Of a DNA stretch of 64,000 nt, positions 2,419-64,000 are shown one piece after another (the stretch's first letter is position 1; every line of letters starts with the position of its first letter). Below the pieces are notes generated by a model. It was not told where the DNA came from. It saw only the letters and a program-made list of their open reading frames with translations, and ran no database searches. The translations under genes were made by a program, and so were the position numbers. This stretch comes from an uncultured Actinomycetes bacterium (GTDB lineage: Bacteria > Actinomycetota > UBA4738 > HRBIN12), in NCBI GenBank assembly GCA_963785835.1, contig CAWAWO010000005.1, forward strand, positions 484,657 through 548,656. Direction: 5' to 3'.

Positions 2419-3805
2419 ATGGCGGAGAGGCTGTCGCCCGAGGACTCGCGCATCCTCGCGCTCGAGTCCAAGTCGATCGTCGGGCACACGTGCAAGGTCG
2501 TGATCGCCGAGCGGACCGGCGACGGCGTCGAGTACCTCCGCGACCGGATCGTCGCGTCGCATCGCGCTCGCGCCGAGCTGTCGACGGCGGATCGTGATCA
2601 CTCCCTACCGCATCGACGCGCCGGTGTGGGCAGACGACCCGAACTTCGACGTTCGCCGGCACGTCCGTAAGGTGCCCGTCGCCGGACCCGTCGGGGATGG
2701 GGAGCTGCGCGAGATCGTCGCTCGACTCATGGCGGAACGGCTACCGCGCGATCGGCCGTTGTGGGCGATCGACGTCGTCGAGCCCCTCGAAGACGGCACG
2801 AGGGCCGTCATCTGGCGCATCCACCACGCGATGGCCGACGGGCAAGCGGCGATGGCGATCGGCTCGGCTCTGCTCTGGAGCGACTCGACCGACCCTGAGC
2901 CCGACCCTCCGCGCCTTCCCCCCGCCGAGCCGCTACCGACCTCGAACATCCTGATCGCGGCCGCCCTGTCGGACCGGGCCCACGCGGTCGGCGACACCGC
3001 CCAACGGATCGGGCGACGGGTCGCGTCACGCCGCCGTTTGCGGGAGAGCCTCGAGGAACTCCGCGGTGCCCCCAGCGCGATCCGGCGCGAGCTGGTACCC
3101 GAACGCGAGACCTCGCCGTTGAACGCGCCGGTGGGGCGGAGGCGTCAGGTCGCGTTCGTCGACCATCCGCTCGACGCCGTTCATCGCGCATCGCACGCCC
3201 TTGGCGAAGGGGTGACGATCAACGACCTCCTCCTCGGTGTGATCGCCGGCGGGCTGCGCCACTGGCTGGAGGCGCGGCACGGCTCGATCGGGCCGCTGCG
3301 TGTCCAGGTGCCGGTGAGCATGCATCGAGAGGGTGAGGCGCCCGGCGCGGTCCCGAACCGGGACTCCTTCGTCAACATCGACCTTCCCGTTCAGGAAGCC
3401 GACGCCGCGCGGCGCGTGTTGGCCGTCAACGAGCAGATGCGGGCCCGAAAGGAGGATCGCGACGCCGAACAGCTATACGCGGTCTTCGCGGACGTCGGGC
3501 ACGTGTCGAAGCACCTGTTCGACCTGGCGCACCGCATCGCATCGAACCCGCACATCTTCGCCCTCTCCGTCTCGAACGTGCGTGGTCCGGCGGGCACGCA
3601 CTACCTCGCGGGAGGGCAGATCCGGGAGGTCTACTCGCTCGCGGAGGTCGCCCCGCACCACGCACTCAGGGTGTCCGCGATCTCCTTCGCCGGACGGATG
3701 GCGATCGGCCTGTGCGCGGACGCCGACGCGATCCCGGAACTCCCCGAGCTCGCCGAAGGCGTCCAGCGGTCGATGGTCGAGCTGACCGAGGGCGCCACCG
3801 CCTGA
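2419..3805 (+). CDS. Wax ester/triacylglycerol synthase family O-acyltransferase (frameshift near 2550-2595)
   Basis: Catalytic HHAMADG, RDRPLW, TINDLLL, VPVS, SNVRGP; N-terminal RLSPED in a different frame. Confidence 0.85.
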
Positions 3806-3863
3806 GGATGCTCCAGATCGACGGGTCTGCGGGTGATTGACCGGGCCTCGGGCATCGAACAGA

Positions 3864-3879
3864 CTGAACAGGTGTTCGA
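3864..3879. promoter_or_regulatory. LexA (SOS) box overlapping the ruvC start codon
   Basis: ctGAAC-aggt-GTTCga matches the Gram-positive/actinobacterial GAAC-N4-GTTC consensus. Confidence 0.8.
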
Positions 3880-4378
3880 TTCGTGCGTGCTCGGGGTCGA
3901 CCCGGGCGTGTCCGCGCTCGGCCTGGGGACGGTTGGCAGGCGGGATCGGCGGCCCGTCGTGCTGGCTGCCGAGACGGTCCGAACGCCAACCCACCTCCCG
4001 GAGAGCGAGCGCCTGCGACTCCTCTATGAGGCGGTACGGGACGCCATCTCCGCGCACCGTCCTGGATCGGTCGCGATCGAGCGGATCGCGTGGAACAAGA
4101 ATCAGGTCAGCGCGATGGCGGTCGCCCGCGCCACGGGCGTCGTCTTGCTCGCGGCGGCCGAGGCCGACCTGGATGTCGAGGAGTACGGCTCGCTCGAGGT
4201 GAAGATGGCCGTGACAGGCCAGGGGAACGCCGACAAGGCCCAGGTGCGCGACGCGCTCGAACGGTTCCACGGCCTGCAAGACCTGCCGAACGAGCCCGAC
4301 GCCGTCGACGCCGTCGCGATCGCGCTCTGCCACCTCACCCAGTCGCGTCTGCGGCGTGTGGCAAGGTTGGCCACGTGA
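3872..4378 (+). CDS. ruvC: Holliday junction resolvase RuvC
   Basis: VLGVDPG, AIE, VKMAVTGQGNADKAQV, DAVDAVAIALCH. Confidence 0.96.
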   Translation: MFDSCVLGVDPGVSALGLGTVGRRDRRPVVLAAETVRTPTHLPESERLRLLYEAVRDAISAHRPGSVAIERIAWNKNQVSAMAVARATGVVLLAAAEADLDVEEYGSLEVKMAVTGQGNADKAQVRDALERFHGLQDLPNEPDAVDAVAIALCHLTQSRLRRVARLAT

Positions 4379-4947
4379 TCTCGTTCCTCGAGGGTGATGT
4401 CGCCGAGAAGGCCGGGACGCGGGTGGTGATCTCGGTCGGCGGGGTCGGCTACGACGTGCTCGTGCCGGCCTCCACGCTCTCGAAGCTGCCACCGGTGGGG
4501 CGGCCGACTCGCGTGCACACGCGGATGACGGTCCGCGACGACGCGATGGTCCTGTACGGGTTCGCGAGCGCCGACGAACGGGAGCTGTTCGACCTCCTCG
4601 TGACCGTGAACGGCATCGGGCCGAAGGTGGCGCTCTCGTTCCTGTCCGTGCTCTCGCCTGAGGCCCTACGCCGGGCCATCGCGTCCGGCGACGTCGCGGC
4701 GCTCACCGTCGTGCCTGGAGTCGGCAAGAAGGTGGCCCAGCGGGTCGCGCTGGACCTGAAGGACAGGCTCGGTGGCGACGAGGTCGTGATCGTCGACGGC
4801 CCGCTCGTGGACGTCCGCGAGGCGCTCCTCGCGCTCGGCCTGTCGCCGCAGGAGGCGAGCGAGGCGATGACCGGCCTCGCGCCGAACGGCGACCGTCCGG
4901 TGGAGGACCTCCTCCGAGAAGCACTGCAGCGCGTAGGGCGGGGGTAG
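4375..4947 (+). CDS. ruvA: Holliday junction branch migration protein RuvA
   Basis: GTGA overlap; [31 protein letters not shown]. Confidence 0.97.
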
Positions 4948-52771: not shown

Positions 52772-53275
52772 GTGACGGTGCTGCCCATCAGGACGTTGGG
52801 GGACCCGGTGCTCCGCGAACGCGCGACACGGGTCGAGACGTTCGACGCCGCGCTCCGCCGGCTCGCGGAGGACATGATCGAGACGATGCACGCCGCTCCC
52901 GGCGTCGGTCTGGCCGCGAACCAGGTCGGGCTGCGGCTCGCGTGCTTCGTCTACGACGACCGCGACGGCCATGCGGGGTTCGTCGCGAACCCCGAGCTGT
53001 CGGCGTTCGAGGACGAGGAGACGATCGACGAGGGATGTCTTTCGGTCCCCGGCCCCTACCACCCCACGAGTCGCGCGTTGCGGGTCCGTCTCGCTGGGGT
53101 GGACCTCGATGGCAAGGCGGTGGACGTACGGGCAGAGGGACTGCTCGCCCGCATCTTCCAACACGAGACCGATCACCTGAAAGGCATGCTGTACCTCGAC
53201 CGGCTGAACGACGAGGGCCGGCGCGACGTGATGCGCCAGCTCCGTGAGCTCGAGGTGGAACGCTCGGAGCGCTGA
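52772..53275 (+). CDS. def: Peptide deformylase
   Basis: GVGLAANQVG, EGCLS, QHETDHLKG. Confidence 0.97.
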   Translation: MTVLPIRTLGDPVLRERATRVETFDAALRRLAEDMIETMHAAPGVGLAANQVGLRLACFVYDDRDGHAGFVANPELSAFEDEETIDEGCLSVPGPYHPTSRALRVRLAGVDLDGKAVDVRAEGLLARIFQHETDHLKGMLYLDRLNDEGRRDVMRQLRELEVERSER

Positions 53276-53327
53276 ACGAGACGAGCGGCAGGCCGAGCCG
53301 TTCGCCCGGCCACGTATCCTCGGGCGC

Positions 53328-54257
53328 GTGGCTCTCCGCGTCACGTTCCTCGGCAACGATCGATGGTCCGTACCGTCGCTGCGCGCGCTCGTTGGATCGG
53401 ACCACGACGTCGTCGCTGCGGTGACCGCGGCGCCCAAGCCGGCTGGGCGAGGGAGCCGGCTCACCCCGACGCCGGTCGCCGAGGCCGCGCAGGCGCTCGA
53501 GCTCCCGCTCCTCGAGGTCGAGACGGTGCGATCGGATCCGGGGCTCTCGTCGCTCGTGTCCACTCAGCCCGACGTCCTCGCCGTGGTCGCCTACGGTGAG
53601 CTCCTGCCGCCCGCAGTCCTCGCCCTGCCGAGGATCGCTCCCGTCAACCTGCACTTCTCGCTGCTTCCGAAGCTGCGGGGTGCGAGCCCGGTTCAGACCG
53701 CCCTGCTCCTCGGCCTCGAGGAGACGGGGGTCTCGACGATCGTGATGGACGAAGGGCTGGACACGGGGCCGGTGATCCTGCAGCGTGGCGAGCCGATCGA
53801 ACCGGCCGACGATGCGGGATCCCTCGGGGATCGGCTCGCCACGCTCGGCGCGCAGGTCCTGGTCGAGTCGATCGATCTGCTCGCCTCCGGTCGTGCGAGC
53901 CCAATGCCGCAGGACGAGGCGCTCGCGACCTACGCGCGTCGGCTCGGAACCGAGGATCGCCTCCTCGACTGGTCGAACGATGCGGGCGACCTCGTGAACC
54001 GGTGTCGAGCGCTCTCCCCGGAGCCGGCCGCGACCACCACGTTCCGCGGCAAGGACCTCAAGGTCTTCCGGGCCGCCGACGCGTCTGCCGACGGCGAACC
54101 GGGCACGGTCGTCGAGGTCGGCCGAGACGGGTTCGTCGTCGCGACGGCGGGAGGAGGGTTCCGCCCGCTCGAGCTCGCCCCCGCGGGCGGTCGCCGGATG
54201 AGCGCCACGGATTTCGTGAACGGGTATCGGCCGTCCGTCGGCGAGCGCCTCGGGTGA
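53328..54257 (+). CDS. fmt: Methionyl-tRNA formyltransferase
   Basis: VVAYG, NLHFSLLPKLRGASP, MDEGLDTGP. Confidence 0.96.
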   Translation: MALRVTFLGNDRWSVPSLRALVGSDHDVVAAVTAAPKPAGRGSRLTPTPVAEAAQALELPLLEVETVRSDPGLSSLVSTQPDVLAVVAYGELLPPAVLALPRIAPVNLHFSLLPKLRGASPVQTALLLGLEETGVSTIVMDEGLDTGPVILQRGEPIEPADDAGSLGDRLATLGAQVLVESIDLLASGRASPMPQDEALATYARRLGTEDRLLDWSNDAGDLVNRCRALSPEPAATTTFRGKDLKVFRAADASADGEPGTVVEVGRDGFVVATAGGGFRPLELAPAGGRRMSATDFVNGYRPSVGERLG

Positions 54258-55552
54258 GCGTCACCACTTCGGCGCGCGCCGTCGCGCTCGACGTGGTGCG
54301 CCGCGTCACCGATGAGGGCGCGTATTCCAACCTCGCGCTCCGACGCTCGCTCGAACGCGCGGGCCTGTCCGATCGCGACGCCGCCTTCGCCACCGAGCTC
54401 GCGTACGGGACGCTCCGGCGTCTGGTCCCGATCGATCACGAACTCGGGCCGCTGCTCGAACGTCCCCTCGACACGGCGCCGAAGGGGGCACGTGCCGCGC
54501 TCCGGTTGGGCGCGTACCAGATCCGGTACACGCGGGTGCCCGCGCACGCCGCCGTCTCCGAGACGGTCTCGCTCGTGGACCGTCGCCACCGCGGGTTCGT
54601 CAACGCGGTGCTCCGCCGGCTGACGACGGAGCCGGCAGGTGCGGTCGAGGGCTCGGCGGACGATCCGATCTCCGTCCGCACGGGCTTGTCCGAGTGGGCG
54701 GTGCGCGAGCTCCGTCGTCTCGTGCCCGAGGAGGTCGAGGCGGCCGCGGCAGCGCTCGGGGAACGAGCGCGGATCGCCGTCCGGACGAACGCGTGCCGAA
54801 CCTCGATCGAGGAGCTGGAGCGCGAGCTCGCCCGGGCCGGGGTCGGCGCCGAGCGCGGCGAGCTCCACCCGGAGTCGCTGCTCGTCGACGCGGGCGACCC
54901 GGCGTCGTTCCCGCGCTTCGACGAGGGATGGTTCGCGGTGCAGGATCAAGCATCCTCGTTCGTCGGGGCCGCCCTCGACGTTCGGCCGGGAGACCGCGTC
55001 TTGGACGTCTGCGCGGGACCAGGCGGGAAGGCGGCGCAGCTCGCATGCCTGGCCGGCGACGGGAACCTCGTGGCCGCGGACGTCTCGCCGGTGCGGCTGT
55101 CGCTCGTTCGCGGTGCGCTGGGACGACTCGGCGTCTCCGCCCGACTCGTCGTCCAGGACGGACGGCGCCCCGCGATGAGCGGCGGCTTCGACCGCGTGCT
55201 CGTGGACGCACCGTGCTCGGGCATCGGCTCGGCGCGTCGGCGGCCCGAGCTCCTCTGGCGGGTCCGCCGGGACGAGCTCTCCGGCTTGGCGCGGCTGCAG
55301 GTGGGCATCGCGACCGCCGCGGCGGGTCTCCTCGCCCCGGGCGGGCGTCTCGTCTACAGCGTCTGCACGTTCCCGCGCGCCGAGACCGACGCGGCGTGCG
55401 ACGCGCTGCTGCGACGGGCTCCCGAACTCGAGCCCGTCTCGATGGAGGGACCCGACGGCGCGGCCGAACGCGTGCGCTTGTGGCCGCACCGGCACGGGTG
55501 CGACGCGATGTTCGTCGCGGCGTTCCGCAGGCGCGAACGGACCCGCGACTAG
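54254..55552 (+). CDS. rsmB: 16S rRNA m5C967 methyltransferase RsmB
   Basis: NusB-like N-terminus, VQDQASS, LDVCAGPGGK, DAPCSGIG, YSVCT. Confidence 0.94.
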   Translation: MSVTTSARAVALDVVRRVTDEGAYSNLALRRSLERAGLSDRDAAFATELAYGTLRRLVPIDHELGPLLERPLDTAPKGARAALRLGAYQIRYTRVPAHAAVSETVSLVDRRHRGFVNAVLRRLTTEPAGAVEGSADDPISVRTGLSEWAVRELRRLVPEEVEAAAAALGERARIAVRTNACRTSIEELERELARAGVGAERGELHPESLLVDAGDPASFPRFDEGWFAVQDQASSFVGAALDVRPGDRVLDVCAGPGGKAAQLACLAGDGNLVAADVSPVRLSLVRGALGRLGVSARLVVQDGRRPAMSGGFDRVLVDAPCSGIGSARRRPELLWRVRRDELSGLARLQVGIATAAAGLLAPGGRLVYSVCTFPRAETDAACDALLRRAPELEPVSMEGPDGAAERVRLWPHRHGCDAMFVAAFRRRERTRD

Positions 55553-55561
55553 GATGCGAGG

Positions 55562-56218
55562 GTGGCAAAGCTCGCCGCATCGATCCTGTCCGCGGACCTG
55601 GCTCGGCTCGCCGAGGAGGTAAAGCTCGTCGAGCCGCATGTCGACCTCATCCATGTGGACGTGATGGACGCTCACTTCGTCCCGCCGCTCACGATCGGGC
55701 CTCCCGTGATCGCGAGTCTGCGGTCCCATACCGATCGACCGCTCCACGCGCACCTGCAGGTCGAGTCGCCGGAGGGGCTGTTCGAGGTGCTGGCGGAGGC
55801 GGGGACCGACGCCGTGAGTTTCCACGTGGAGGCCGTGAGCGATCCCGCGCCCCTGATCCGCAAGGCGAGCGCTCTCGAGGTCCGCGTCGGGCTCGCGCTT
55901 GCCCCCCCGACCTCGATCGAACAGGTGGGGCCGTACCTCGACGAGATCGACGACGTCGTCGTCTTGGCGGTGCATCCCGGTTGGGCGGGGCAGCCGTTCC
56001 GGTCCGAGGTGCTCGAGAAGGTCGAGGCGGTCAGGACCGAGATCGATCGCCGTGGGCTCGCCGTCGACGTTCACGTGGACGGCGGGGTGAACGCGGAGAC
56101 CGTCGGACGATGCATCGACGCCGGCGCCGATGTGGTGGTGGCCGCGTCGGCGATCTTCGGCGGCTCCGATCCCGGGGGAGCCGCTCGAAAGCTGCGCGCC
56201 CTGGCGGGGGGAGCCTGA
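55562..56218 (+). CDS. rpe: Ribulose-phosphate 3-epimerase
   Basis: SILSAD, HVDVMD.HFVP, PGWAGQ, VDGGVN. Confidence 0.95.
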   Translation: MAKLAASILSADLARLAEEVKLVEPHVDLIHVDVMDAHFVPPLTIGPPVIASLRSHTDRPLHAHLQVESPEGLFEVLAEAGTDAVSFHVEAVSDPAPLIRKASALEVRVGLALAPPTSIEQVGPYLDEIDDVVVLAVHPGWAGQPFRSEVLEKVEAVRTEIDRRGLAVDVHVDGGVNAETVGRCIDAGADVVVAASAIFGGSDPGGAARKLRALAGGA

Positions 56219-57147
56219 TGCCCGAGTCCATCCTCGTGGTCGACGACGATCCGGACATCGCCCGGTTCGTCGAGGTCAACCTCCGGAGCGCGGGGTACGA
56301 CGTGTCGGTGGCCTCGGACGGCGAGGAGGCGTTGCAGAAGGCCGGCCTGCTTCGTCCGGATCTCGTGCTCCTCGACGTGATGATGCCGCGGATCGACGGC
56401 TTCGAGGTCGCGCACCGTTTGCGCCGGAACCCGCAGACGGCCAACACGTCGATCATCATGCTGACGGCGAAGGCGCTCGCGACCGACAAAGTGCTCGGGC
56501 TCACCGCCGGCGCCGACGACTACATCATCAAGCCGTTCGACCCGATCGAGCTGCTCGCGCGCGTCAAGGGAACGCTCCGTCGCGCGAAGGAGATGCGCAA
56601 CCTGTCGCCGCTTACGGGACTGCCCGGCAACATCCGGATCCAAGAGGAGATCGAACGCATGGTGCGCGAGGATCATCCGTTCGCGGTCCTGTACGCCGAC
56701 CTCGACAACTTCAAGGCGTACAACGATCAGAAGGGGTTCGTCCGGGGCGACCGCCTGATCCAGGCGACCGCCCGCGTGATCCAGGACGCGGTCGTCCAGT
56801 ACGCCCCCGACGGGTTCGTCGGGCACGTCGGTGGCGACGACTTCGTCGCGGTCGTGCAGCCCGACGTCGCCGAGGACGTGGCCAAGCGCGTCGTCGAGAC
56901 GTTCGACGCCCAGATCCACGGGTTCTACGAGCCCGAGGAGGTCGCGCAGGGCTACGTAGAGGTCGAGGACCGCAAAGGGGAGATGCAGCACATCCCGATC
57001 GCCGGGGTCTCGGTCGGCATCGCCACCACGGATGTGCGCTCGTTCGCCCACTACGGGGAGGCCGTCTCGATGGCGACGGAGATGAAGCAGTTTGCCAAGC
57101 GCGAGGGGCGTTCTTCCTACGCGATCGACCGCCGCAGGGTGGACTGA
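56218..57147 (+). CDS. Response regulator with a diguanylate cyclase domain (REC-GGDEF)
   Basis: LVVDDD, LLDVMMP, KPF; PLTGLPGN, DLDNFKAYND, GHVGGDDF. Confidence 0.93.
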   Translation: MPESILVVDDDPDIARFVEVNLRSAGYDVSVASDGEEALQKAGLLRPDLVLLDVMMPRIDGFEVAHRLRRNPQTANTSIIMLTAKALATDKVLGLTAGADDYIIKPFDPIELLARVKGTLRRAKEMRNLSPLTGLPGNIRIQEEIERMVREDHPFAVLYADLDNFKAYNDQKGFVRGDRLIQATARVIQDAVVQYAPDGFVGHVGGDDFVAVVQPDVAEDVAKRVVETFDAQIHGFYEPEEVAQGYVEVEDRKGEMQHIPIAGVSVGIATTDVRSFAHYGEAVSMATEMKQFAKREGRSSYAIDRRRVD

Positions 57148-57259
57148 CTCGCCACCCTCCCAGAGGCGGCCGACCTCTGCGGCCGGAAGGACTTCTTCTC
57201 CCTGACCAGGCCCGCGGGGTGACCGGCCGCAGCCGGCCGACCTATACTCAGGCGAGAAA

Positions 57260-57387
57260 CCTGTCTTCGGGGCGGGGTGCAAGTCCCCACCGGCGGTGAC
57301 AGTCCGCGACCCTCCGAGAGCCACTCGGGGGTGGACCCGGTGCGATTCCGGGACCGACCGTGAGAGTCGGGATGGGAGAGGACGGGT
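57260..57387 (+). ncRNA. FMN riboswitch (RFN element)
   Basis: TCTTCGGGGCGGGGTGCAAGTCCCCACCGGCGGTGACAGTCCGCGA...CCGGTGCGATTCCGG..CCGAC..GGATGGGAGAGGA; TATACT -10 at 57243; upstream of ribD. Confidence 0.96.
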
Positions 57388-57451
57388 GCGCGGCGGCTGC
57401 CAGGCCGCCCCGTCCCGCGTTCCCCGCATACCGCCTCGGGAACGGAGCAGC

Positions 57452-58549
57452 GTGTCCGACGAGGCGTACATCGAGCGAGCGATCGAGCTCGCGGAGCGGG
57501 GACGGGGGCTCGTTTCGCCCAACCCGATGGTCGGCGCCGTGGTCGTCGCCGAGGACCAGGTCGTCGGGGAGGGCTGGCACGAAGGCGCCGGGCTGCCGCA
57601 TGCGGAGGTCCTGGCCCTGAACGCCGCCGGCGAGCGAGCGCGGGGCGCCACGCTCTACGCCTCTTTGGAACCGTGCACCCACTACGGCCGCACCCCGCCC
57701 TGTACGGACGCCATCCTTCGCGCCGGCATCGCTCGGGTGGTCGCCGCCGCGACCGATCCGAACCCGGTCGTCGACGGCAAGGGGTTCGAGATCCTGCGGT
57801 CGGGCGGGATCGACGTTCGGTCCGGCGTCCTGGCCGAGGCGGCCGAACGCCAGAACCATGCCTTCGCGAAGCACGTTCGAACGGGGATGCCGTTCGTCGT
57901 CTGGAAGATGGCGTCCTCGCTCGACGGCAAGGTCGCCGCTCGCGACGGTTCGTCGCGGTGGGTGACCGGCGACGCCGCCAGGGCCGACGTCCACCGGTTG
58001 CGCGCGTGGTCGGATGCGATCGCGGTCGGGGCCGGCACGGCGCTCGCCGACGATCCCGAGCTCACGGTCCGAGATCCCGACTATCGCGGACGGCCGCCGA
58101 TCCGCGTGCTCGTGGACGCCCGCGGCCGCGTGCCCGCGACCGGTGACCTGTTCGATCGTCAGGCGCCGACCCTGGTGGCTACCACGGAGCGTGCGCCCGT
58201 CGAGGTTCGCGAGGCGTGGCGCGCGGCCGGAGCCGACGTCGTCGTGTTCGAGGCCGAGGGCGAGCTGGTGCCGATCGGCGCACTCCTCGCGGATCTCGGC
58301 AAGCGCGACGTGCAGGGAGTGCTGCTGGAGGGTGGGCCGACGCTCGCCTGGTCGGCCGTCGAGGACGGGCTGGTCGACGCGATCGTCCTGTACCTGTCCC
58401 CGAAGTTGATCGGCGGACGGGACGCCCCGACCGTGCTCGAAGGCCGGGGGTTCGCCCCGGTCGGGCACGCGCTGCCGCTGCGGATCCGTTCGGTCGAGCA
58501 CGTCGGAGAGGACCTGAGGGTGGAGGCCGATGTTCACCGGGATCGTTGA
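57452..58549 (+). CDS. ribD: Riboflavin biosynthesis deaminase/reductase RibD
   Basis: PNPMVGAV, HAE, LEPCTHYGRTPPC, SLDGK, LLEGG. Confidence 0.97.
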   Translation: MSDEAYIERAIELAERGRGLVSPNPMVGAVVVAEDQVVGEGWHEGAGLPHAEVLALNAAGERARGATLYASLEPCTHYGRTPPCTDAILRAGIARVVAAATDPNPVVDGKGFEILRSGGIDVRSGVLAEAAERQNHAFAKHVRTGMPFVVWKMASSLDGKVAARDGSSRWVTGDAARADVHRLRAWSDAIAVGAGTALADDPELTVRDPDYRGRPPIRVLVDARGRVPATGDLFDRQAPTLVATTERAPVEVREAWRAAGADVVVFEAEGELVPIGALLADLGKRDVQGVLLEGGPTLAWSAVEDGLVDAIVLYLSPKLIGGRDAPTVLEGRGFAPVGHALPLRIRSVEHVGEDLRVEADVHRDR

Positions 58550-59114
58550 GGAGCGCGGCGTGGTGCGGGAGACCGGCCCGCCCCGGCTCTCGGTCGCGTG
58601 CCGGACGGTGACGTCGGACGCCGAGCCCGGAGCCTCGATCGCGGTGAACGGCGCCTGCCTGACCGTGGTCGAGCGCTCGAGCGACCATCTCGCGTTCGAC
58701 CTGTCCGAGGAGACGCTCCGCCGGACCGGCTTCGCCCGGCTCCGCGAGGGCGACCCCGTGAACCTCGAGCGCGCGCTGACGCTGTCGAGCCGTCTGGGCG
58801 GGCACCTCGTCCAGGGGCACGTCGACGGGGTCGGGGAGGTGACGGGGTTCGAACGCACGGGCGACGGTGGCGCCTGGCTCACCGTGCGCGCGCCGGGGGA
58901 CCTCGTCCGCTACCTGGTGGAGAAGGGGTCGATCGGCGTGGACGGCGTGAGCCTCACGATCGCCGAGTGCGTCGGCGAGGTGTTCTCGGCCGCGCTGATC
59001 CCGCACACGCTCGACGTGACGACGCTCGGGTCGGCGAAGGTGGGCGACCCCGTGAACCTGGAGGTCGACGTGATCGCGAAGTACGTGGAGGCGCTCCAGG
59101 GGCAGCGGATATGA
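58530..59114 (+). CDS. ribE: Riboflavin synthase (alpha chain)
   Basis: MFTGIVEE, SIAVNGACLT, GGHLVQGHVDG, KGSIGVDGVSLT. Confidence 0.97.
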   Translation: MFTGIVEERGVVRETGPPRLSVACRTVTSDAEPGASIAVNGACLTVVERSSDHLAFDLSEETLRRTGFARLREGDPVNLERALTLSSRLGGHLVQGHVDGVGEVTGFERTGDGGAWLTVRAPGDLVRYLVEKGSIGVDGVSLTIAECVGEVFSAALIPHTLDVTTLGSAKVGDPVNLEVDVIAKYVEALQGQRI

Positions 59115-60349
59115 GGGATCCGGCGTTCTCGACGATCGACGAGGCCATCGCCGACATCCGGGCGGGCAAGATCGTGATCGTCGTCGACGACGCCGACCGG
59201 GAGAACGAGGGCGACTTCATCATGGCCGCCGAGATGGCCACCCCCGAGAGCCTGAACTTCATGGTCACCCACGGCCGCGGGATCGTGTGCATGCCGATGA
59301 CGCAGCAACGGCTCGACGAGCTTCGGATCCCGTTGATGGTCTCGAAGAACAACGAGAGTCACGGCACCGCGTTCGCGGTCTCGATCGACATCCAGGGCCG
59401 CACGACGACCGGCACGAGCGCGTTCGACAGGGCGGCGACCGTTCGAGCGATCGCCGACCCCGACCTGCGCCCCGAGGACATCCGGATGCCCGGCCACGTG
59501 TTCCCGCTCATGGCGCAGGAGGGCGGCGTGCTGAAGCGCGCCGGTCACACCGAGGCGACCGTCGACCTGGCTCGCCTGGCGGGCCTGTATCCCGCCGGCG
59601 TGCTCTGCGAGGTCCTGCATCCGGACGGGTCGATGGCCCGCCTGCCCGAGCTCACCCGGGTCGCGACGGAGCACGACCTGCGGATCATCTCGATCGCGGA
59701 CCTGATCGAGCACCGCCGTCGCCGGGAGCACCTGGTCCAGCGCACGGCCGAGGCTCAGATCCCGACCGAGCACGGCGAGTTCACCGCGTACACGTACGAG
59801 AGCCTCGTCGACGGGATCGTGCACGTCGCGCTCGTGCTCGGTGAGGTCGGCGACGGGGAGCGGATCCTCGTCCGGGTGCATTCGGAGTGCCTGACCGGCG
59901 ACGTGTTCGGGTCGATGCGGTGCGATTGCGGCGATCAGCTCCACAGCGCCATCAGCCAGGTGGGCAAGGAAGGTCGAGGGGTCGTCCTCTACATCCGCGG
60001 CCACGAGGGCCGCGCGATCGGGCTGACGCACAAGCTGCGCGCGTACCGGCTGCAGGAGCAGGGTCGCGACACGGTCGAGGCGAACGTCGAGCTCGGGTTC
60101 GCGGCCGACCCACGCGACTACGGGATCGGGGCGCAGATCCTCGTCGATCTCGGCGTGCGCTCGATGCGGCTGCTCACGAACAACCCCGCCAAGCGCGCCG
60201 GCCTGGAGGGCTACGGGCTCTCGATCGTCGAACGGGTCCCGCTCGAGACGCGACCGACGGCCATGAACATCGGGTACCTGCGGACCAAGGCTCAGAAGAT
60301 GGGGCACCTGCTCGAGAACCTGGAGGAGGAACCGGGGGTGGCGCCGTGA
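59111..60349 (+). CDS. ribBA: Bifunctional DHBP synthase / GTP cyclohydrolase II
   Basis: DDADRENEGD, RAGHTEA, VRVHSECLTGD...CDC, LLTNNP. Confidence 0.97.
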   Translation: MRDPAFSTIDEAIADIRAGKIVIVVDDADRENEGDFIMAAEMATPESLNFMVTHGRGIVCMPMTQQRLDELRIPLMVSKNNESHGTAFAVSIDIQGRTTTGTSAFDRAATVRAIADPDLRPEDIRMPGHVFPLMAQEGGVLKRAGHTEATVDLARLAGLYPAGVLCEVLHPDGSMARLPELTRVATEHDLRIISIADLIEHRRRREHLVQRTAEAQIPTEHGEFTAYTYESLVDGIVHVALVLGEVGDGERILVRVHSECLTGDVFGSMRCDCGDQLHSAISQVGKEGRGVVLYIRGHEGRAIGLTHKLRAYRLQEQGRDTVEANVELGFAADPRDYGIGAQILVDLGVRSMRLLTNNPAKRAGLEGYGLSIVERVPLETRPTAMNIGYLRTKAQKMGHLLENLEEEPGVAP

Positions 60350-60894
60350 ACGAGATCCCGGGGGGGCGGGGGGCTCAAGGCGCTGACGCGGATGCGAGCG
60401 CGGACGCGCGAGCGGTAGGCCCCCGCGAGCTCAAAGGCGAGCTTCGAGCCGGCGGGCGGCGCTTCGCGGTCGTCGCGGCCCGGTTCAACGAGCTCGTGAC
60501 CCGCAAGCTGCTGGAGGGCGCGCTCGCGGCGCTCCGGGCGGGCGGCGTGGCGGACGAGGACGTCGACGTGGCGTGGGTGCCGGGCGCGTTCGAGCTTCCC
60601 CTGGTGGCCCGCCGCATGGCCGCCTCGAAGACGTACGACGGCGTGATCTGTCTCGGCGCCGTGATCCGTGGCGAGACGGCGCATTTCGATCACGTCGCCA
60701 GGGAAGCGGCCACAGGGATCCGCAGCGCCGGCGAGGAGACGGGGGTGCCCGTGACCTTCGGCGTCCTCACCACCGACACGCTCGAGCAGGCGTTGGATCG
60801 CGCGGGTGGGGAACATGGGAACAAGGGCTGGGACGCGGCGACCGCCGCCATCGAGACGGCCTCGCTGCTCGAGCAACTGCCCAAGGAGGCGTGA
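60346..60894 (+). CDS. ribH: 6,7-dimethyl-8-ribityllumazine synthase
   Basis: ARFN, VPGAFELP, GAVIRGETAHFD, FGVLT, NKG. Confidence 0.96.
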   Translation: MNEIPGGRGAQGADADASADARAVGPRELKGELRAGGRRFAVVAARFNELVTRKLLEGALAALRAGGVADEDVDVAWVPGAFELPLVARRMAASKTYDGVICLGAVIRGETAHFDHVAREAATGIRSAGEETGVPVTFGVLTTDTLEQALDRAGGEHGNKGWDAATAAIETASLLEQLPKEA

Positions 60895-60897
60895 TCC

Positions 60898-61248
60898 GTG
60901 ATCGTGGACAAGCCGTGGGGCAAGGTCGTGACCTATGCGCTGAACCAGCCGGCCTCGGTACGGATGATCACCGTCGAGCCGGGGCAGGAGACCAGCGTGC
61001 ACTACCACCAGATGCGCGACGAGATGTGGGTGGTGCTCGACGCAGGGCTGAACGTCCAGATCGGCAACCGGTCCGTGGAGGCCTCGACGGGCGAGGAGTT
61101 CATGGTGAGCGCGGAGACCACCCACCGGATCACCAACCAGGGGACGTCCCGCGGGCGCGTGCTGGAGATCGCGTACGGCTACACGACCGAGGACGACACG
61201 CTGCGCCTCCAGGACGACTACGGGCGCGCGCTCGAACCCGACTGGTGA
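60898..61248 (+). CDS. Cupin protein (mannose-6-phosphate isomerase type II C-terminal-like)
   Basis: KPWG, SVHYHQMRDEMWVV, THRI, RLQDDYGR. Confidence 0.85.
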   Translation: MIVDKPWGKVVTYALNQPASVRMITVEPGQETSVHYHQMRDEMWVVLDAGLNVQIGNRSVEASTGEEFMVSAETTHRITNQGTSRGRVLEIAYGYTTEDDTLRLQDDYGRALEPDW

Positions 61249-61314
61249 TCGTGGCGTTGAGCGGCCGGGATGCCGCGTGCTACGCTCCGCGGGCTCCAAG
61301 CACAGGAGGGCACG

Positions 61315-61518
61315 TTGGCAGAGCAGGGCACCGTGAAGTGGTTCAGCAACGAGAAGGGCTTCGGCTTCATCTCGCGCGAGGGAGAGGACGACGTCTTCGT
61401 CCATTTCTCCGCGATCGAAGGCGAAGGCTACAAGTCGCTCACCGAGGGCCAGACGGTCGAGTTCGACGTCGTGGACGGCCCCAAGGGCAAGCAGGCGGCC
61501 AACGTTCGGCCCGTCTGA
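61315..61518 (+). CDS. cspA: Cold-shock protein
   Basis: [24 protein letters not shown]; AGGAGG RBS before TTG. Confidence 0.96.
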
Positions 61519-61606
61519 CATCGGCCCCGCCCGGGGGCGCTCCGAGCGTCGACACCGCCTCGAACCTGCACCTATACTCTGCGGGTTCGGTTCACCGTGT
61601 TCCACC

Positions 61607-61631
61607 AGGCACCGGCGGACGCCCGGTGCCT
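61607..61631 (+). promoter_or_regulatory. Leader hairpin upstream of infC-rpmI-rplT
   Basis: AGGCACCGG/CCGGTGCCT 9-bp stem between a TATACT -10 (61573) and the infC SD. Confidence 0.5.
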
Positions 61632-61656
61632 TCGTCTCGATAGGAGGTGATGCGGG

Positions 61657-62220
61657 GTCTCGGCTGATCCGCGCATAAACGACCGGATCCGCTCGGCGCA
61701 GGTGCGCCTGGTGGGCCCGGACGGATCGCAGATCGGGATCGTTTCGACCCAGGATGCGCTCCGGCAGGCACAGGAGTTGGACCTCGATCTGGTGGAGGTG
61801 GCGCCGCAGGCGAATCCCCCCGTGGCCCGCATCATGGATTACGGGAAGTTCAAGTACGAGCGCGACATCCGCCAGAAGGAAGCCCGCAAGAAGCAGGCTC
61901 GGATCGAGGTCAAGGAGATCAAGTTCCGTCCGAAGATCGACCCGCACGACTACGCCACCAAGAAGGGCCACGTCGAGCGGTTCCTGCGGGCGGGCGCGCG
62001 GGTCAAGGTGACCATCATGTTCCGCGGGAGGGAGATGGCCCGGACCGAGCTCGGCCGCAAGATCTTGGACCGGCTGGTCGAGGACCTCGGGGACTCGGCC
62101 GTGGTCGAGTCCTCGCCCAAGCAGGACGGACGCAACATGGTGATGGTCATCGCGCCGACGAAGAAGCATCCCGAACCGAAGGGCGCGGGCAGGGAACGCA
62201 CCTCGCCCGCCCCGGCCTAA
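61657..62220 (+). CDS. infC: Translation initiation factor IF-3 (non-canonical start)
   Basis: [11 protein letters not shown] upstream of the ORF-track start; [34 protein letters not shown]. Confidence 0.96.
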
Positions 62221-62259: not shown

Positions 62260-62451
62260 ATGCCGAAACAGAAGACGCACCGCGCGACGGCCAAGCGCTT
62301 CCGCATCACGCGCCGGGGCAAGGTGATCCACCGCAAGGCGACCGGGAACCATTTCCTGAAGAAGAAGGGTGGCAGCCGACGGCGCCGCGTCGAAGGCATG
62401 ACCGAGGTCACGGCCGAGCGGACCAACATCCGCCGGTTGCTGGGGAAGTAG
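62260..62451 (+). CDS. rpmI: 50S ribosomal protein L35
   Basis: [19 protein letters not shown]. Confidence 0.97.
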
Positions 62452-62458
62452 GGTCGAG

Positions 62459-62818
62459 ATGGCACGCGTCAAGCGCTCCGTGCACGCGAAGAAGAAGCGC
62501 CGCGAGGTCCTCCGCAAGGCGAAGGGCTACTACGGCTCGCGCTCGCGCCGCTATCGCGTCGCGAAGGAACAGCTCCTGCACTCGGGTCAGTACGCCTACC
62601 GCGACCGGCGCGACCGCAAGGCGCAGTTCCGCCGGCTGTGGATCGCGCGGATCGGAGCCGGTGCCCGCCAGAACGGCCTGTCCTACTCGCGGTTCATGAA
62701 CGGTCTGCAAAGAGCCGGGGTCGAGGTCGACCGCAAGGCGCTCGCGGATCTGGCCGTGCACGACCCGGCGGCGTTCGGGCAGCTCGTCCAGGCGGCGAAG
62801 GACGCGCTCGCAGCCTAG
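62459..62818 (+). CDS. rplT: 50S ribosomal protein L20
   Basis: [36 protein letters not shown]. Confidence 0.98.
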
Positions 62819-62896: not shown

Positions 62897-64000
62897 GTGA
62901 TCACCTCCGTCCGGAACCCGAGGGTGGCTTCCGCGCTCCGGCTCCACAAGCGCGCGTTCCGCGAGCGCGACCGGGCGTTCCTGGTCGAGGGCATTCGAGC
63001 CGTGGAGGAGGCGCTCGGGCGCCCGGGCGGCGTCACGGCGCTCTTCTGTCTCGATCCGAGCCACCGTCTCGCCGAGCGCGCGCGGTCCGTCGGTGCCGAG
63101 GTCGTCCATGTGGGCGAGGAGGTGATGGCGCGCCTCACCGGCACCGTCACGCCGCAGGGGATGGTGGCGCTCGCGCCGTTCGTCGACGTCTCGATCGACG
63201 CGCTTCCGTCGGATCTCTCGTGCGTCGCGCTCCTGCACGCGGTCCGAGATCCGGGCAACGCCGGAACCGTCCTCCGCTCCGTGGACGCGGCCGGAGCCGA
63301 CGCCGTGGTCGTCTCCTCCGCGTCGGTCGACGTGTACAACGCGAAGACCGTCCGCGCATCGGCGGGGTCGTTGTTCCACGTTCCGCTGGTCCGTGAGGTC
63401 GACACCGAGGAGACGATCGAGCTCCTGCGGAGCCGCGGTGTTCGGGTGCTCGCCATGGACGCCACGGCGGAGTCCGACCTCCACGAGGTGGACCTCACCG
63501 ACCCCGTCGCGTTCGTGTTCGGGAACGAGGCGTGGGGTCTTCCGGAGGAGATCGCGCGCCTCGCCGACGTGGTCGTGCGGATCCCGATCGCAGGTCGCGC
63601 CGAATCGCTCAACGTCGCCGCCGCGGCGACGGTTTGCCTGTTCGAGTGGGCGAGGCAGCAGCGCGAGGGGCGGCGGGCGGTCCTCGAGACGCTGATCGCC
63701 GCGGCGGCACACGACATCCGGTCGCCGCTCACCGCGATGAAGGGCTTCGGCCACTCGCTGTTGACCCGCTGGGATCGGATGACGGCCGATCAACGCGACC
63801 TGATGCTGCGGGGCATCGTCGTGGACGCGGACCGCATGAACTCGATCGTGCGCCAGCTGGTCGACGCCGCGCGCCTGACCGCCGGACGGCTCGAGCTGTT
63901 CCCCGAACGGACCGACGTCGGGGACCTCGTCCGGCGGGTCGCGGCCTCGCTCGCCCGGAACCCCGATCATCCGCCGGTCGAGTGGGAGGGGGGCGACGTG
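62897..64000 (+). CDS. TrmH/SpoU-family RNA methyltransferase fused to a histidine kinase HisKA domain (truncated by the window end)
   Basis: Hand translation: ITSVRNPRV, FLVEG, VRDPGNAGTVLRS, FGNEAWGL, ESLNVAAAA, then in frame AAAAHDIRSPLTAMKGF...ADRMNSIVRQLVDAARLTAGRLEL. Confidence 0.9.
   Translation, partial: MITSVRNPRVASALRLHKRAFRERDRAFLVEGIRAVEEALGRPGGVTALFCLDPSHRLAERARSVGAEVVHVGEEVMARLTGTVTPQGMVALAPFVDVSIDALPSDLSCVALLHAVRDPGNAGTVLRSVDAAGADAVVVSSASVDVYNAKTVRASAGSLFHVPLVREVDTEETIELLRSRGVRVLAMDATAESDLHEVDLTDPVAFVFGNEAWGLPEEIARLADVVVRIPIAGRAESLNVAAAATVCLFEWARQQREGRRAVLETLIAAAAHDIRSPLTAMKGFGHSLLTRWDRMTADQRDLMLRGIVVDADRMNSIVRQLVDAARLTAGRLELFPERTDVGDLVRRVAASLARNPDHPPVEWEGGDV

Follow-up and report, generated by a model that had tools for sequence, protein, structure and literature searches.

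RlmR of Thermus thermophilus (Um2552; 9h1k/9muj, TTHA0275 4x3m) and RlmP/YsgA of Bacillus subtilis (Gm2553; 7qiu) are described as enzymes acting on the 23S rRNA A-loop. Both combine an L30e-like N-terminal domain with a SpoU catalytic domain and, with 250–280 amino acids (aa), end after the SPOUT fold. A second set of reference proteins, Spo0B (B. subtilis), ChpT (Caulobacter) and PhyT (Sphingomonas), comprises dimeric histidine phosphotransferases; they are described as degenerated histidine kinases that either carry phosphoryl groups from one receiver to another or act on receivers. These proteins possess a DHp domain with its histidine and a CA-like domain without an ATP site (the CA domain of ChpT being called ‘functionally degenerated’), and are stand-alone or membrane-anchored, with no enzyme fusion. 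The third reference is OhkA (SCO1596) of Streptomyces coelicolor, an orphan PAS histidine kinase that, according to a review, represses antibiotic production and promotes development, its partner being the orphan NarL-type regulator OrrA (SCO3008); according to published papers, SCO1600 is IF-3, SCO1599 is L35, SCO1595 is pheS and SCO1594 is pheT. The present study concerns a gene at the 3′ end of a 64,000-nucleotide (nt) stretch of DNA from an uncultured Actinomycetes bacterium (assembly GCA_963785835.1, contig CAWAWO010000005.1, or G000:C5:484657-548656; hereafter the window), which encodes a TrmH/SpoU methyltransferase continued in frame by a histidine-kinase-like half devoid of the canonical ATP-binding residues. 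The favored reading, which rests on analogy and is given a probability of about 0.6, is that this half would be a Spo0B/ChpT/PhyT-like pseudo-kinase module rigidly joined to a methyltransferase dimer.

Translation of the forward strand across 62897–64000 yields 368 residues without a stop, and the open reading frame (ORF) is listed with an open 3′ end. The initial annotation had described an uninterrupted frame from the GTG at 62897 to the end of the window with a His codon at 63710, and translation bears this out, including all the motifs it quoted (DPGNAGTVLR, FGNEAWGL, ESLNVA, EWARQQREGRRAVLETL and AAHDIRSPLTAMKGF). Beyond the window, on a longer locus of the same contig (L003), the frame ends at a stop equivalent to window position 64324, giving a full protein of 475 aa (L003 2554–3981), and pheS starts 30 nt past this stop. 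The protein has four parts: an L30e-like RNA-binding domain is followed by the SpoU/TrmH methyltransferase, then by the HisKA (DHp) domain that contains His272, and finally by a CA-like domain. Their positions in the window are as follows:

62897–64000, + strand: window part of the fusion gene (residues 1–368 of 475; GTG start, homologs beginning with M/V-ITS-x-RNP at the same start)

62915–63169, + strand: N-terminal L30e-like RNA substrate-binding domain (residues 7–91; PF22435, MRM3-like_sub_bind, 59.1 bits, and PF08032, 36.5 bits, both above cut-off)

63227–63643, + strand: SpoU/TrmH SPOUT catalytic domain (residues 111–249; PF00588, 131.8 bits against a cut-off of 29.7)

63614–63778, + strand: continuous predicted helix (residues 240–294) that begins as the last SPOUT helix, crosses the former linker and becomes DHp helix 1 with His272

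63686–63886, + strand: HisKA/DHp domain (residues 264–330; PF00512, 42.9 bits against a cut-off of 26.9)

63710–63712, + strand: CAC codon of His272, the phospho-acceptor position of the H-box (AAHDIRSPL)

63902–64000, + strand: start of the CA-like (degenerate HATPase_c) domain (residues 336–475, only 336–368 inside the window)

Even for the 368 residues of the window part, the Pfam matches to SpoU_methylase (E 1.5e-38) and HisKA (E 4.3e-11) exceed the curated cut-offs, which confirms the proposal of a complete TrmH/SpoU enzyme followed by an H-box and a DHp domain. The further proposal that a HATPase domain starts here stands in part: a CA-like domain does follow, but on the full 475-aa protein HATPase_c scores 21.9 bits, under the Pfam cut-off of 26.4. 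The same family reaches 92–111 bits in six unfused ortholog kinases. A PAS domain gives no Pfam match in the 475-aa protein.

The nature of the lost ATP site emerges from an alignment of the nucleotide-binding boxes of 27 class-wide members, 11 other fusions (‘group B’) and 7 unfused relatives, complemented by residue counts from 120 sequences, that is, the window protein and the 119 close relatives listed by the search. In 27/27 class members, the N-box NL[VI]ENA is replaced by AF[VI]E[SA]xxWW, the G1 box DxGxG carries Arg at the Asp position (as do 120/120 sequences of the close-relative set), the F box reads LFxPRxPG, and the G2 box GTGLGL has become G[ST]K[ILM]GL, with Lys in place of the middle Gly in 119 of the 120. 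Asn is found at either N-box position in 0/120, while all four boxes (N, G1, F and G2) have the canonical form in the group B fusions and in the unfused kinases. The N-box Asn holds Mg-ATP and the G1 Asp reads adenine; because both are gone, the kinase half would be unable to autophosphorylate canonically. The cytoplasmic kinase put forward in the initial annotation is thus not retained, since no intact HATPase domain lies downstream (HATPase_c at 21.9 bits, N-box Asn and G1 Asp lost).

The H-box has followed a different course. His272 is invariant across three alignments (20/20, 55/55 and 120/120), D273 is kept in 120/120, and R275 and P277 are invariant in 55/55, giving the pattern H-D-[IL]-R-S-P-L. 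Residues W390, W391 and R414, invariant in 120/120, look like a new signature. In the methyltransferase half, N121, R127, E211, S237 and N239 are kept in 120/120; they belong to SPOUT motifs 1–3 (Asn/Arg, Glu and Ser/Asn), which we take to be catalytic, and this half is judged to be intact. Ratios of nonsynonymous to synonymous substitution rates (dN/dS) within the genus (45 pairs) are 0.20 for both SPOUT and DHp, and 0.32 and 0.31 for the N-terminal and the CA-like domains, respectively. By this measure, all four domains are under purifying selection and the kinase half is not decaying.

An AlphaFold2 model of the 475-aa protein, built on a 55-row alignment, has a mean predicted local distance difference test score (pLDDT) of 91.7 and a predicted template-modeling score (pTM) of 0.73. 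Searched with Foldseek, the first half is closest to RlmR 9h1k (template-modeling score (TM) 0.87, target-normalized), with TTHA0275 (4x3m), S. meliloti 5kzk, YsgA/RlmP 7qiu and AviRb also retrieved, and the second half to the DHp+CA region of HK853 (TM 0.77–0.79, target-normalized). A sequence search of solved structures points to the same nearest methyltransferase entries, RlmR and RlmP being the best matches (E 4e-36 and 2e-37, respectively); their folds resemble the fusion with target-normalized TM of 0.87 and 0.83–0.88, at 33–37% identity, and the difference is that the fusion has 220 more residues, which form the DHp and CA-like module. When modeled as a homodimer, the protein reaches a score of 0.58 versus 0.00 for the best control, a mark attained by 20 of 30 proteins solved as same-chain pairs but by just 1 of the 23 whose structures contain a single chain. 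At least 86% of the contacts are common to the runs, with a partner pLDDT of at least 82, and the modeled interface comprises a SPOUT face (124–133, 154–161 and 229–257) and DHp residues 263–329. Both ends of helix 240–294 lie within it. The model supports a single two-fold axis through the SPOUT and DHp dimers, although the homodimer pass may reflect the likeness of both halves to solved SPOUT and DHp dimers. The earlier suggestion that the methyltransferase has replaced the input domain of the kinase is supported: it occupies the former place of the PAS domain, and in the model the two halves are joined via the continuous helix.

The favored reading of a pseudo-kinase module follows from the fact that the canonical ATP residues have been lost while His272 and the DHp surface have been kept under selection. 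In the corresponding mechanism, a homodimeric 23S-rRNA-type SPOUT 2′-O-methyltransferase of the RlmR/RlmP kind, whose last helix runs into the DHp helix of the kinase core, would most likely still methylate the ribosomal A-loop region. The dimeric DHp domain would exchange phosphoryl groups with receiver domains, dephosphorylate receivers or merely bind them, the putative partner being an OrrA-like NarL-type regulator encoded beside hpf. The rigid helical junction would let the state of the methyltransferase (bound to S-adenosylmethionine (SAM), rRNA or pre-50S particles) and that of the DHp domain influence each other. The comparison with Spo0B, ChpT and PhyT is an analogy and not a family membership, and the clear distinction is that here the module is joined to a methyltransferase.

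Several observations weigh against this reading. The 10 Pfam families listed at E<=1 for the 475-aa protein include none of the Spo0B or ChpT type, and a precomputed PF02518 match is recorded for 27 of the 120 relatives listed. In the 120 sequences, a Gly-rich loop with an invariant Lys persists in the CA-like domain; with the CA-like fold and this loop retained, the domain may bind a nucleotide or a phosphate in a non-canonical way. The phosphatase motif of HisKA proteins prefers Thr or Asn at the position His+4, which is Ser in 119/120.

The main rival to a phosphotransfer role is a purely structural one, a tentative alternative that is considered unlikely on balance. The DHp and CA-like domains would then serve for dimerization, as a scaffold or as an extension binding the ribosome or RNA, with no phosphoryl chemistry, and His272 would be structural or involved in binding. 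This agrees with SPOUT and DHp both being dimers, placed on one axis in the model, and with the invariance of W390, W391, R414 and K440, which suggests a new surface or pocket. Two genera that keep a TrmH-only gene in place also fit an accessory role. However, it is the whole H-box and not the His alone that is conserved as in working kinases, and the DHp domain evolves as slowly as the catalytic SPOUT domain (dN/dS 0.20). Moreover, similar SPOUT enzymes seem to dimerize without any extension, to judge from the multi-chain listing of solved entries.

Less probable still is an active cytoplasmic histidine kinase with the methyltransferase as its input, which would autophosphorylate in response to SAM, S-adenosylhomocysteine or rRNA and signal to a response regulator. 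His272 and its H-box are intact, the CA-like domain retains a Bergerat-like fold with the Gly-rich loop, and the canonical boxes of the 11 group B fusions make an active SPOUT-kinase plausible in other lineages. Against it stand the sub-threshold HATPase_c score and the absence of the N-box Asn (0/120) and of the G1 Asp (Arg in 120/120), likewise in the 27/27 class-wide members; intact domains, for comparison, are seen in the unfused orthologs and in group B.

That a mis-assembly, a frameshift or a lost stop has joined two genes in this genome alone is an explanation that could be entertained for a fragmented and incomplete assembly (8 contigs, 82% complete) in a phylum where other members have two genes here and where two lineages have in-frame halves separated by a single stop (G199/L021 and L123), but it is rejected as practically untenable on account of the uninterrupted frame of 473–492 aa in 106/121 class genomes, from many assemblies and sources, and of purifying selection on both sides of the junction.

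The conservation of the fusion is documented by two types of data. In a search over 5.8 billion proteins, at least 120 matching clusters were listed, including the window’s own protein; they measure 428–491 aa, cover 91–100% of the query and, the window’s own protein apart, are 66–84% identical to it. Where public names are given, they read ‘TrmH family RNA methyltransferase’ and refer to ‘Actinomycetota bacterium’ genomes. The second source is a sample of 121 genomes of the window’s class, some of them unpublished and all from a single order, which appears to be the only one in the class; none of the conclusions depends solely on unpublished genomes. A match to the fusion at E<=1e-40 is present in 120 of them, the exception being G134, where none was found at this threshold. 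In 106/121 (table count), the match is uninterrupted from residue <=2 to residue >=463, in a frame of 473–492 aa that does not contain the PAS segment of ∼120 aa. Among the others, matches are clipped by contig ends in G101, G040, G031 and G124, and probably also in G140 and G137, and the halves are split over two contigs in G104 and G129. G038 has a longer linker, still in one open frame. A TrmH-only gene is found in genera g25 (G055, G114 and G119) and g47 (G100 and G127).

The genomic environment is equally stable. Three genes precede the fusion in the window:

61702–62220, + strand: infC (Pfam IF3_N/IF3_C)

62260–62451, + strand: rpmI (Pfam Ribosomal_L35p)

62459–62818, + strand: rplT (Pfam Ribosomal_L20)

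The resulting order, infC-rpmI-rplT-fusion-pheS, is kept with the corresponding gene in 20 fetched class loci wherever the flank is present (contig ends cut the flanks of some), except in L028, whose flank shows only pheS. In the genera with the TrmH-only form, TrmH lies directly before pheS (270 aa in G100 and 254 aa in G114). The view taken from the outset that the fusion is genuine is upheld by the 106/121 class genomes, the conserved synteny and the purifying selection across the junction; to judge from these genomes, the fusion is a real, conserved gene and not an assembly error.

The origin of the fusion can be traced in a sample of 251 genomes of the phylum, one or more of them unpublished, searched with a profile of 20 fusions. 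Full-length matches occur in 18 of the 19 class members of this sample, the 19th (G031) being cut by a contig end. Outside the class, the only full-length match is that of G199, with a single in-frame TAG between the halves. In at least 19 other genomes (one unpublished), the halves appear as separate matches on the same strand, 350–450 nt apart. The fetched loci show a TrmH of 262–301 aa followed by a kinase of 348–386 aa, the stop of the one and the start of the other often overlapping (the TrmH of L017 is listed with 432 aa, its ORF start being overextended). The separate kinases carry PAS_4 or PAS (some only sub-threshold), HisKA and a strong HATPase_c, and in these loci the TrmH and PAS-kinase pair sits between rplT and pheS. 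The same six-gene order is found in the records of Streptomyces sp. NBC_00988, S. diastatochromogenes and Kitasatospora sp. KL5. The initial annotation, which stated that many actinomycetes have a TrmH gene after rplT and then a separate sensor kinase before pheS, is thus correct on this point, both in the phylum sample and in the named records.

This position is that of OhkA, which occupies the same slot as the kinase half of the fusion, between a trmH-like gene and pheS. The counterparts of OhkA and OrrA used here were assigned by position in other Streptomyces genomes, and not from S. coelicolor sequences. The DHp domain of the fusion is 45–51% identical to the OhkA-position kinases versus 28–32% to the best paralogs of its own genome. 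The OhkA type is a separate gene with a PAS input and a canonical HATPase_c, whereas the fusion has its PAS domain deleted, is joined to TrmH and has lost the ATP site. By position and sequence, the kinase half is the ortholog of the OhkA-position PAS-kinase, with the PAS domain and the intergenic stop deleted.

Fused forms are not restricted to a single arrangement. Scoring against 1.84 billion representatives revealed ∼20 full-length fused clusters, including group B at 31–40% identity, and one member of a fused cluster is named from an Acidimicrobiales bacterium. Group B itself, the rarer set, consists of 11 PAS-less fusions with an intact canonical ATP domain; with canonical N, G1, F and G2 boxes, these proteins may be the ones for which an active kinase with a methyltransferase input holds. 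In a quick tree of the SPOUT halves (50 hand-picked rows, with support from the Shimodaira–Hasegawa-like approximate likelihood ratio test only), the 18 class rows fall on one branch (support 88) with both TrmH-only genes among them. The latter fit a secondary loss of the kinase module, the clearest case being L043 with its position deep inside the clade. For group B (10 rows), at least 3 changes are required when only branches with support >=95 are counted; for example, P0143 clusters with a locus from Acidimicrobiales that is not fused (98) and P0137 with L015/L016 (100). On this evidence, the fusion of TrmH to a PAS-less kinase core appears to have arisen several times.

Other arrangements have also been encountered. 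In G199 (L021, 1987–3663, − strand) and in L123 (∼2983–4512, + strand), a single stop separates TrmH from a PAS-less canonical HisKA-HATPase_c kinase in the same frame. Such pairs may represent a fusion that has split recently, the precursor of one, a read-through site or a sequencing error. In L023 of G162 (1652–2710, − strand), a PAS-kinase lies between rplT and pheS with no TrmH gene between them, and the pair can therefore lose either member.

The search for a receiver partner relies on OrrA. In the Streptomyces record behind L144, mtrB was located and the best GerE-domain match of the genome lies ∼5.6 kb away, at the C-terminal end of an ORF of 248 aa, the N-terminal half of which has a receiver-like sequence. 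This ORF adjoins a long-form hpf gene (L204). It is presumed to be the OrrA counterpart, its placement fitting the SCO3008/SCO3012 numbering. The window genome contains a NarL-type counterpart at C5:78851-79537 (L205:1486-2175), 71% identical, the next best being at 43%. Its start overlaps the stop of an hpf-like gene (Ribosomal_S30AE), itself preceded by a comF-like gene (L205:1001-2175; G000:C5 ∼78366-79540), and this comF-hpf-regulator context is common to the window genome and to the candidate Streptomyces OrrA. At E<=1e-70, the OrrA-like regulator is present in 114/121 class genomes with 69–96% identity, and at this threshold it is missing from the three genomes of g25, where the kinase module has been lost as well.

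Phyletic patterns speak in part against this pairing. The co-loss in g25 is unspecific, as G114 and G119 keep only 4 receivers each, and g47 has lost the kinase module yet retains the OrrA-like regulator (75% identity in G100 and 69% in G127), which implies that the regulator is independent of the module. The number of receiver domains per genome is 35 in G000, 41 in G100, and 4 in G114 and in G119; the latter two belong to the same family (g25, reduced genomes of 1.5–1.6 Mb) and display a near-complete loss of two-component signaling. Identifying the partner by phyletic pattern was abandoned, since a comparison of 34 receivers of G000 with G100 left too many candidates: when a clear counterpart is defined by >=50% identity over >=85% of the query, 14/34 have one and 20/34 do not. 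From context and conservation, the OrrA-like NarL-type regulator next to hpf is considered the most likely receiver partner, as a candidate.

Other features of the region concern transcription and neighboring genes. A terminator scan of L003 detected no site between rplT, the fusion gene and pheS, and its four terminator-like matches all lie within coding sequence; Rfam searches at gathering thresholds over L003 (11 kb) gave 0 matches. A sigma-70-like promoter match (10 of 12 positions, a consensus match only) is located at window 61549–61578 (+ strand; L003 1206–1235), ∼125 nt upstream of infC, and is the sole promoter-like match in the scanned stretch. Its position would suit a single transcription unit running from infC onward. 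Among public sequencing runs screened for the window DNA, one possible DNA run was found (0.07 of sampled words) and no RNA run was listed.

Upstream, a run of housekeeping genes extends over window 53244–60894 (+ strand), with fmt (53244–54257), rsmB (54002–55552, start probably later), rpe (55562–56218), ribD (57296–58549), ribBA (58598–60349) and ribH (within 59887–60894); the ORF starts as listed overlap, so the true starts are probably further downstream. Between rpe and ribD, ∼5.7 kb upstream of the fusion gene, a gene at 56218–57147 (+ strand) encodes a response regulator with a GGDEF output (Response_reg 104.6 bits, GGDEF 61.7 bits). Two long ORFs, 60573–61643 (+ strand, 356 aa) and 56130–57299 (+ strand, 389 aa), have no Pfam match and may be spurious frames over real genes in this high-G+C DNA; the latter overlaps the gene of the GGDEF regulator in another frame.

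Both halves of the protein come from well-known families. Among the papers listed in a literature search, judged by title and opening of the abstract and without supplementary domain tables, none was found that describes a SpoU methyltransferase joined to HisKA. The new elements are the orthology with the OhkA-position kinase, the deletion of the PAS domain, the repeated occurrence of fusions (some of which keep their ATP domain intact), the secondary losses of the kinase module and the hpf-linked OrrA-like candidate. An rRNA-modifying enzyme rigidly coupled to a phospho-acceptor domain would be a rare direct link between ribosome biogenesis and His-Asp signaling. The kinase half would add a kinase-dead but conserved case to the small set of pseudo-histidine-kinases and phosphotransferases formed by Spo0B, ChpT and PhyT. 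Beyond the window’s class, the conservation of the trmH-kinase pair across Actinomycetota and its repeated fusion suggest a testable input for Streptomyces OhkA. A much broader and distinctly speculative proposal, held to be rather unlikely as a whole, is that of a phylum-wide circuit in which OhkA-type kinases would physically read the neighboring A-loop methyltransferase (as a measure of late 50S assembly or of SAM supply) and signal to the hpf-coencoded OrrA-type regulator. In the window’s class, a single polypeptide would hard-wire this circuit, and the kinase would have shrunk to a module for phosphotransfer or phosphatase activity. If true, it would tie ribosome biogenesis to hibernation and development throughout the phylum, and the fusion would be its Rosetta stone.

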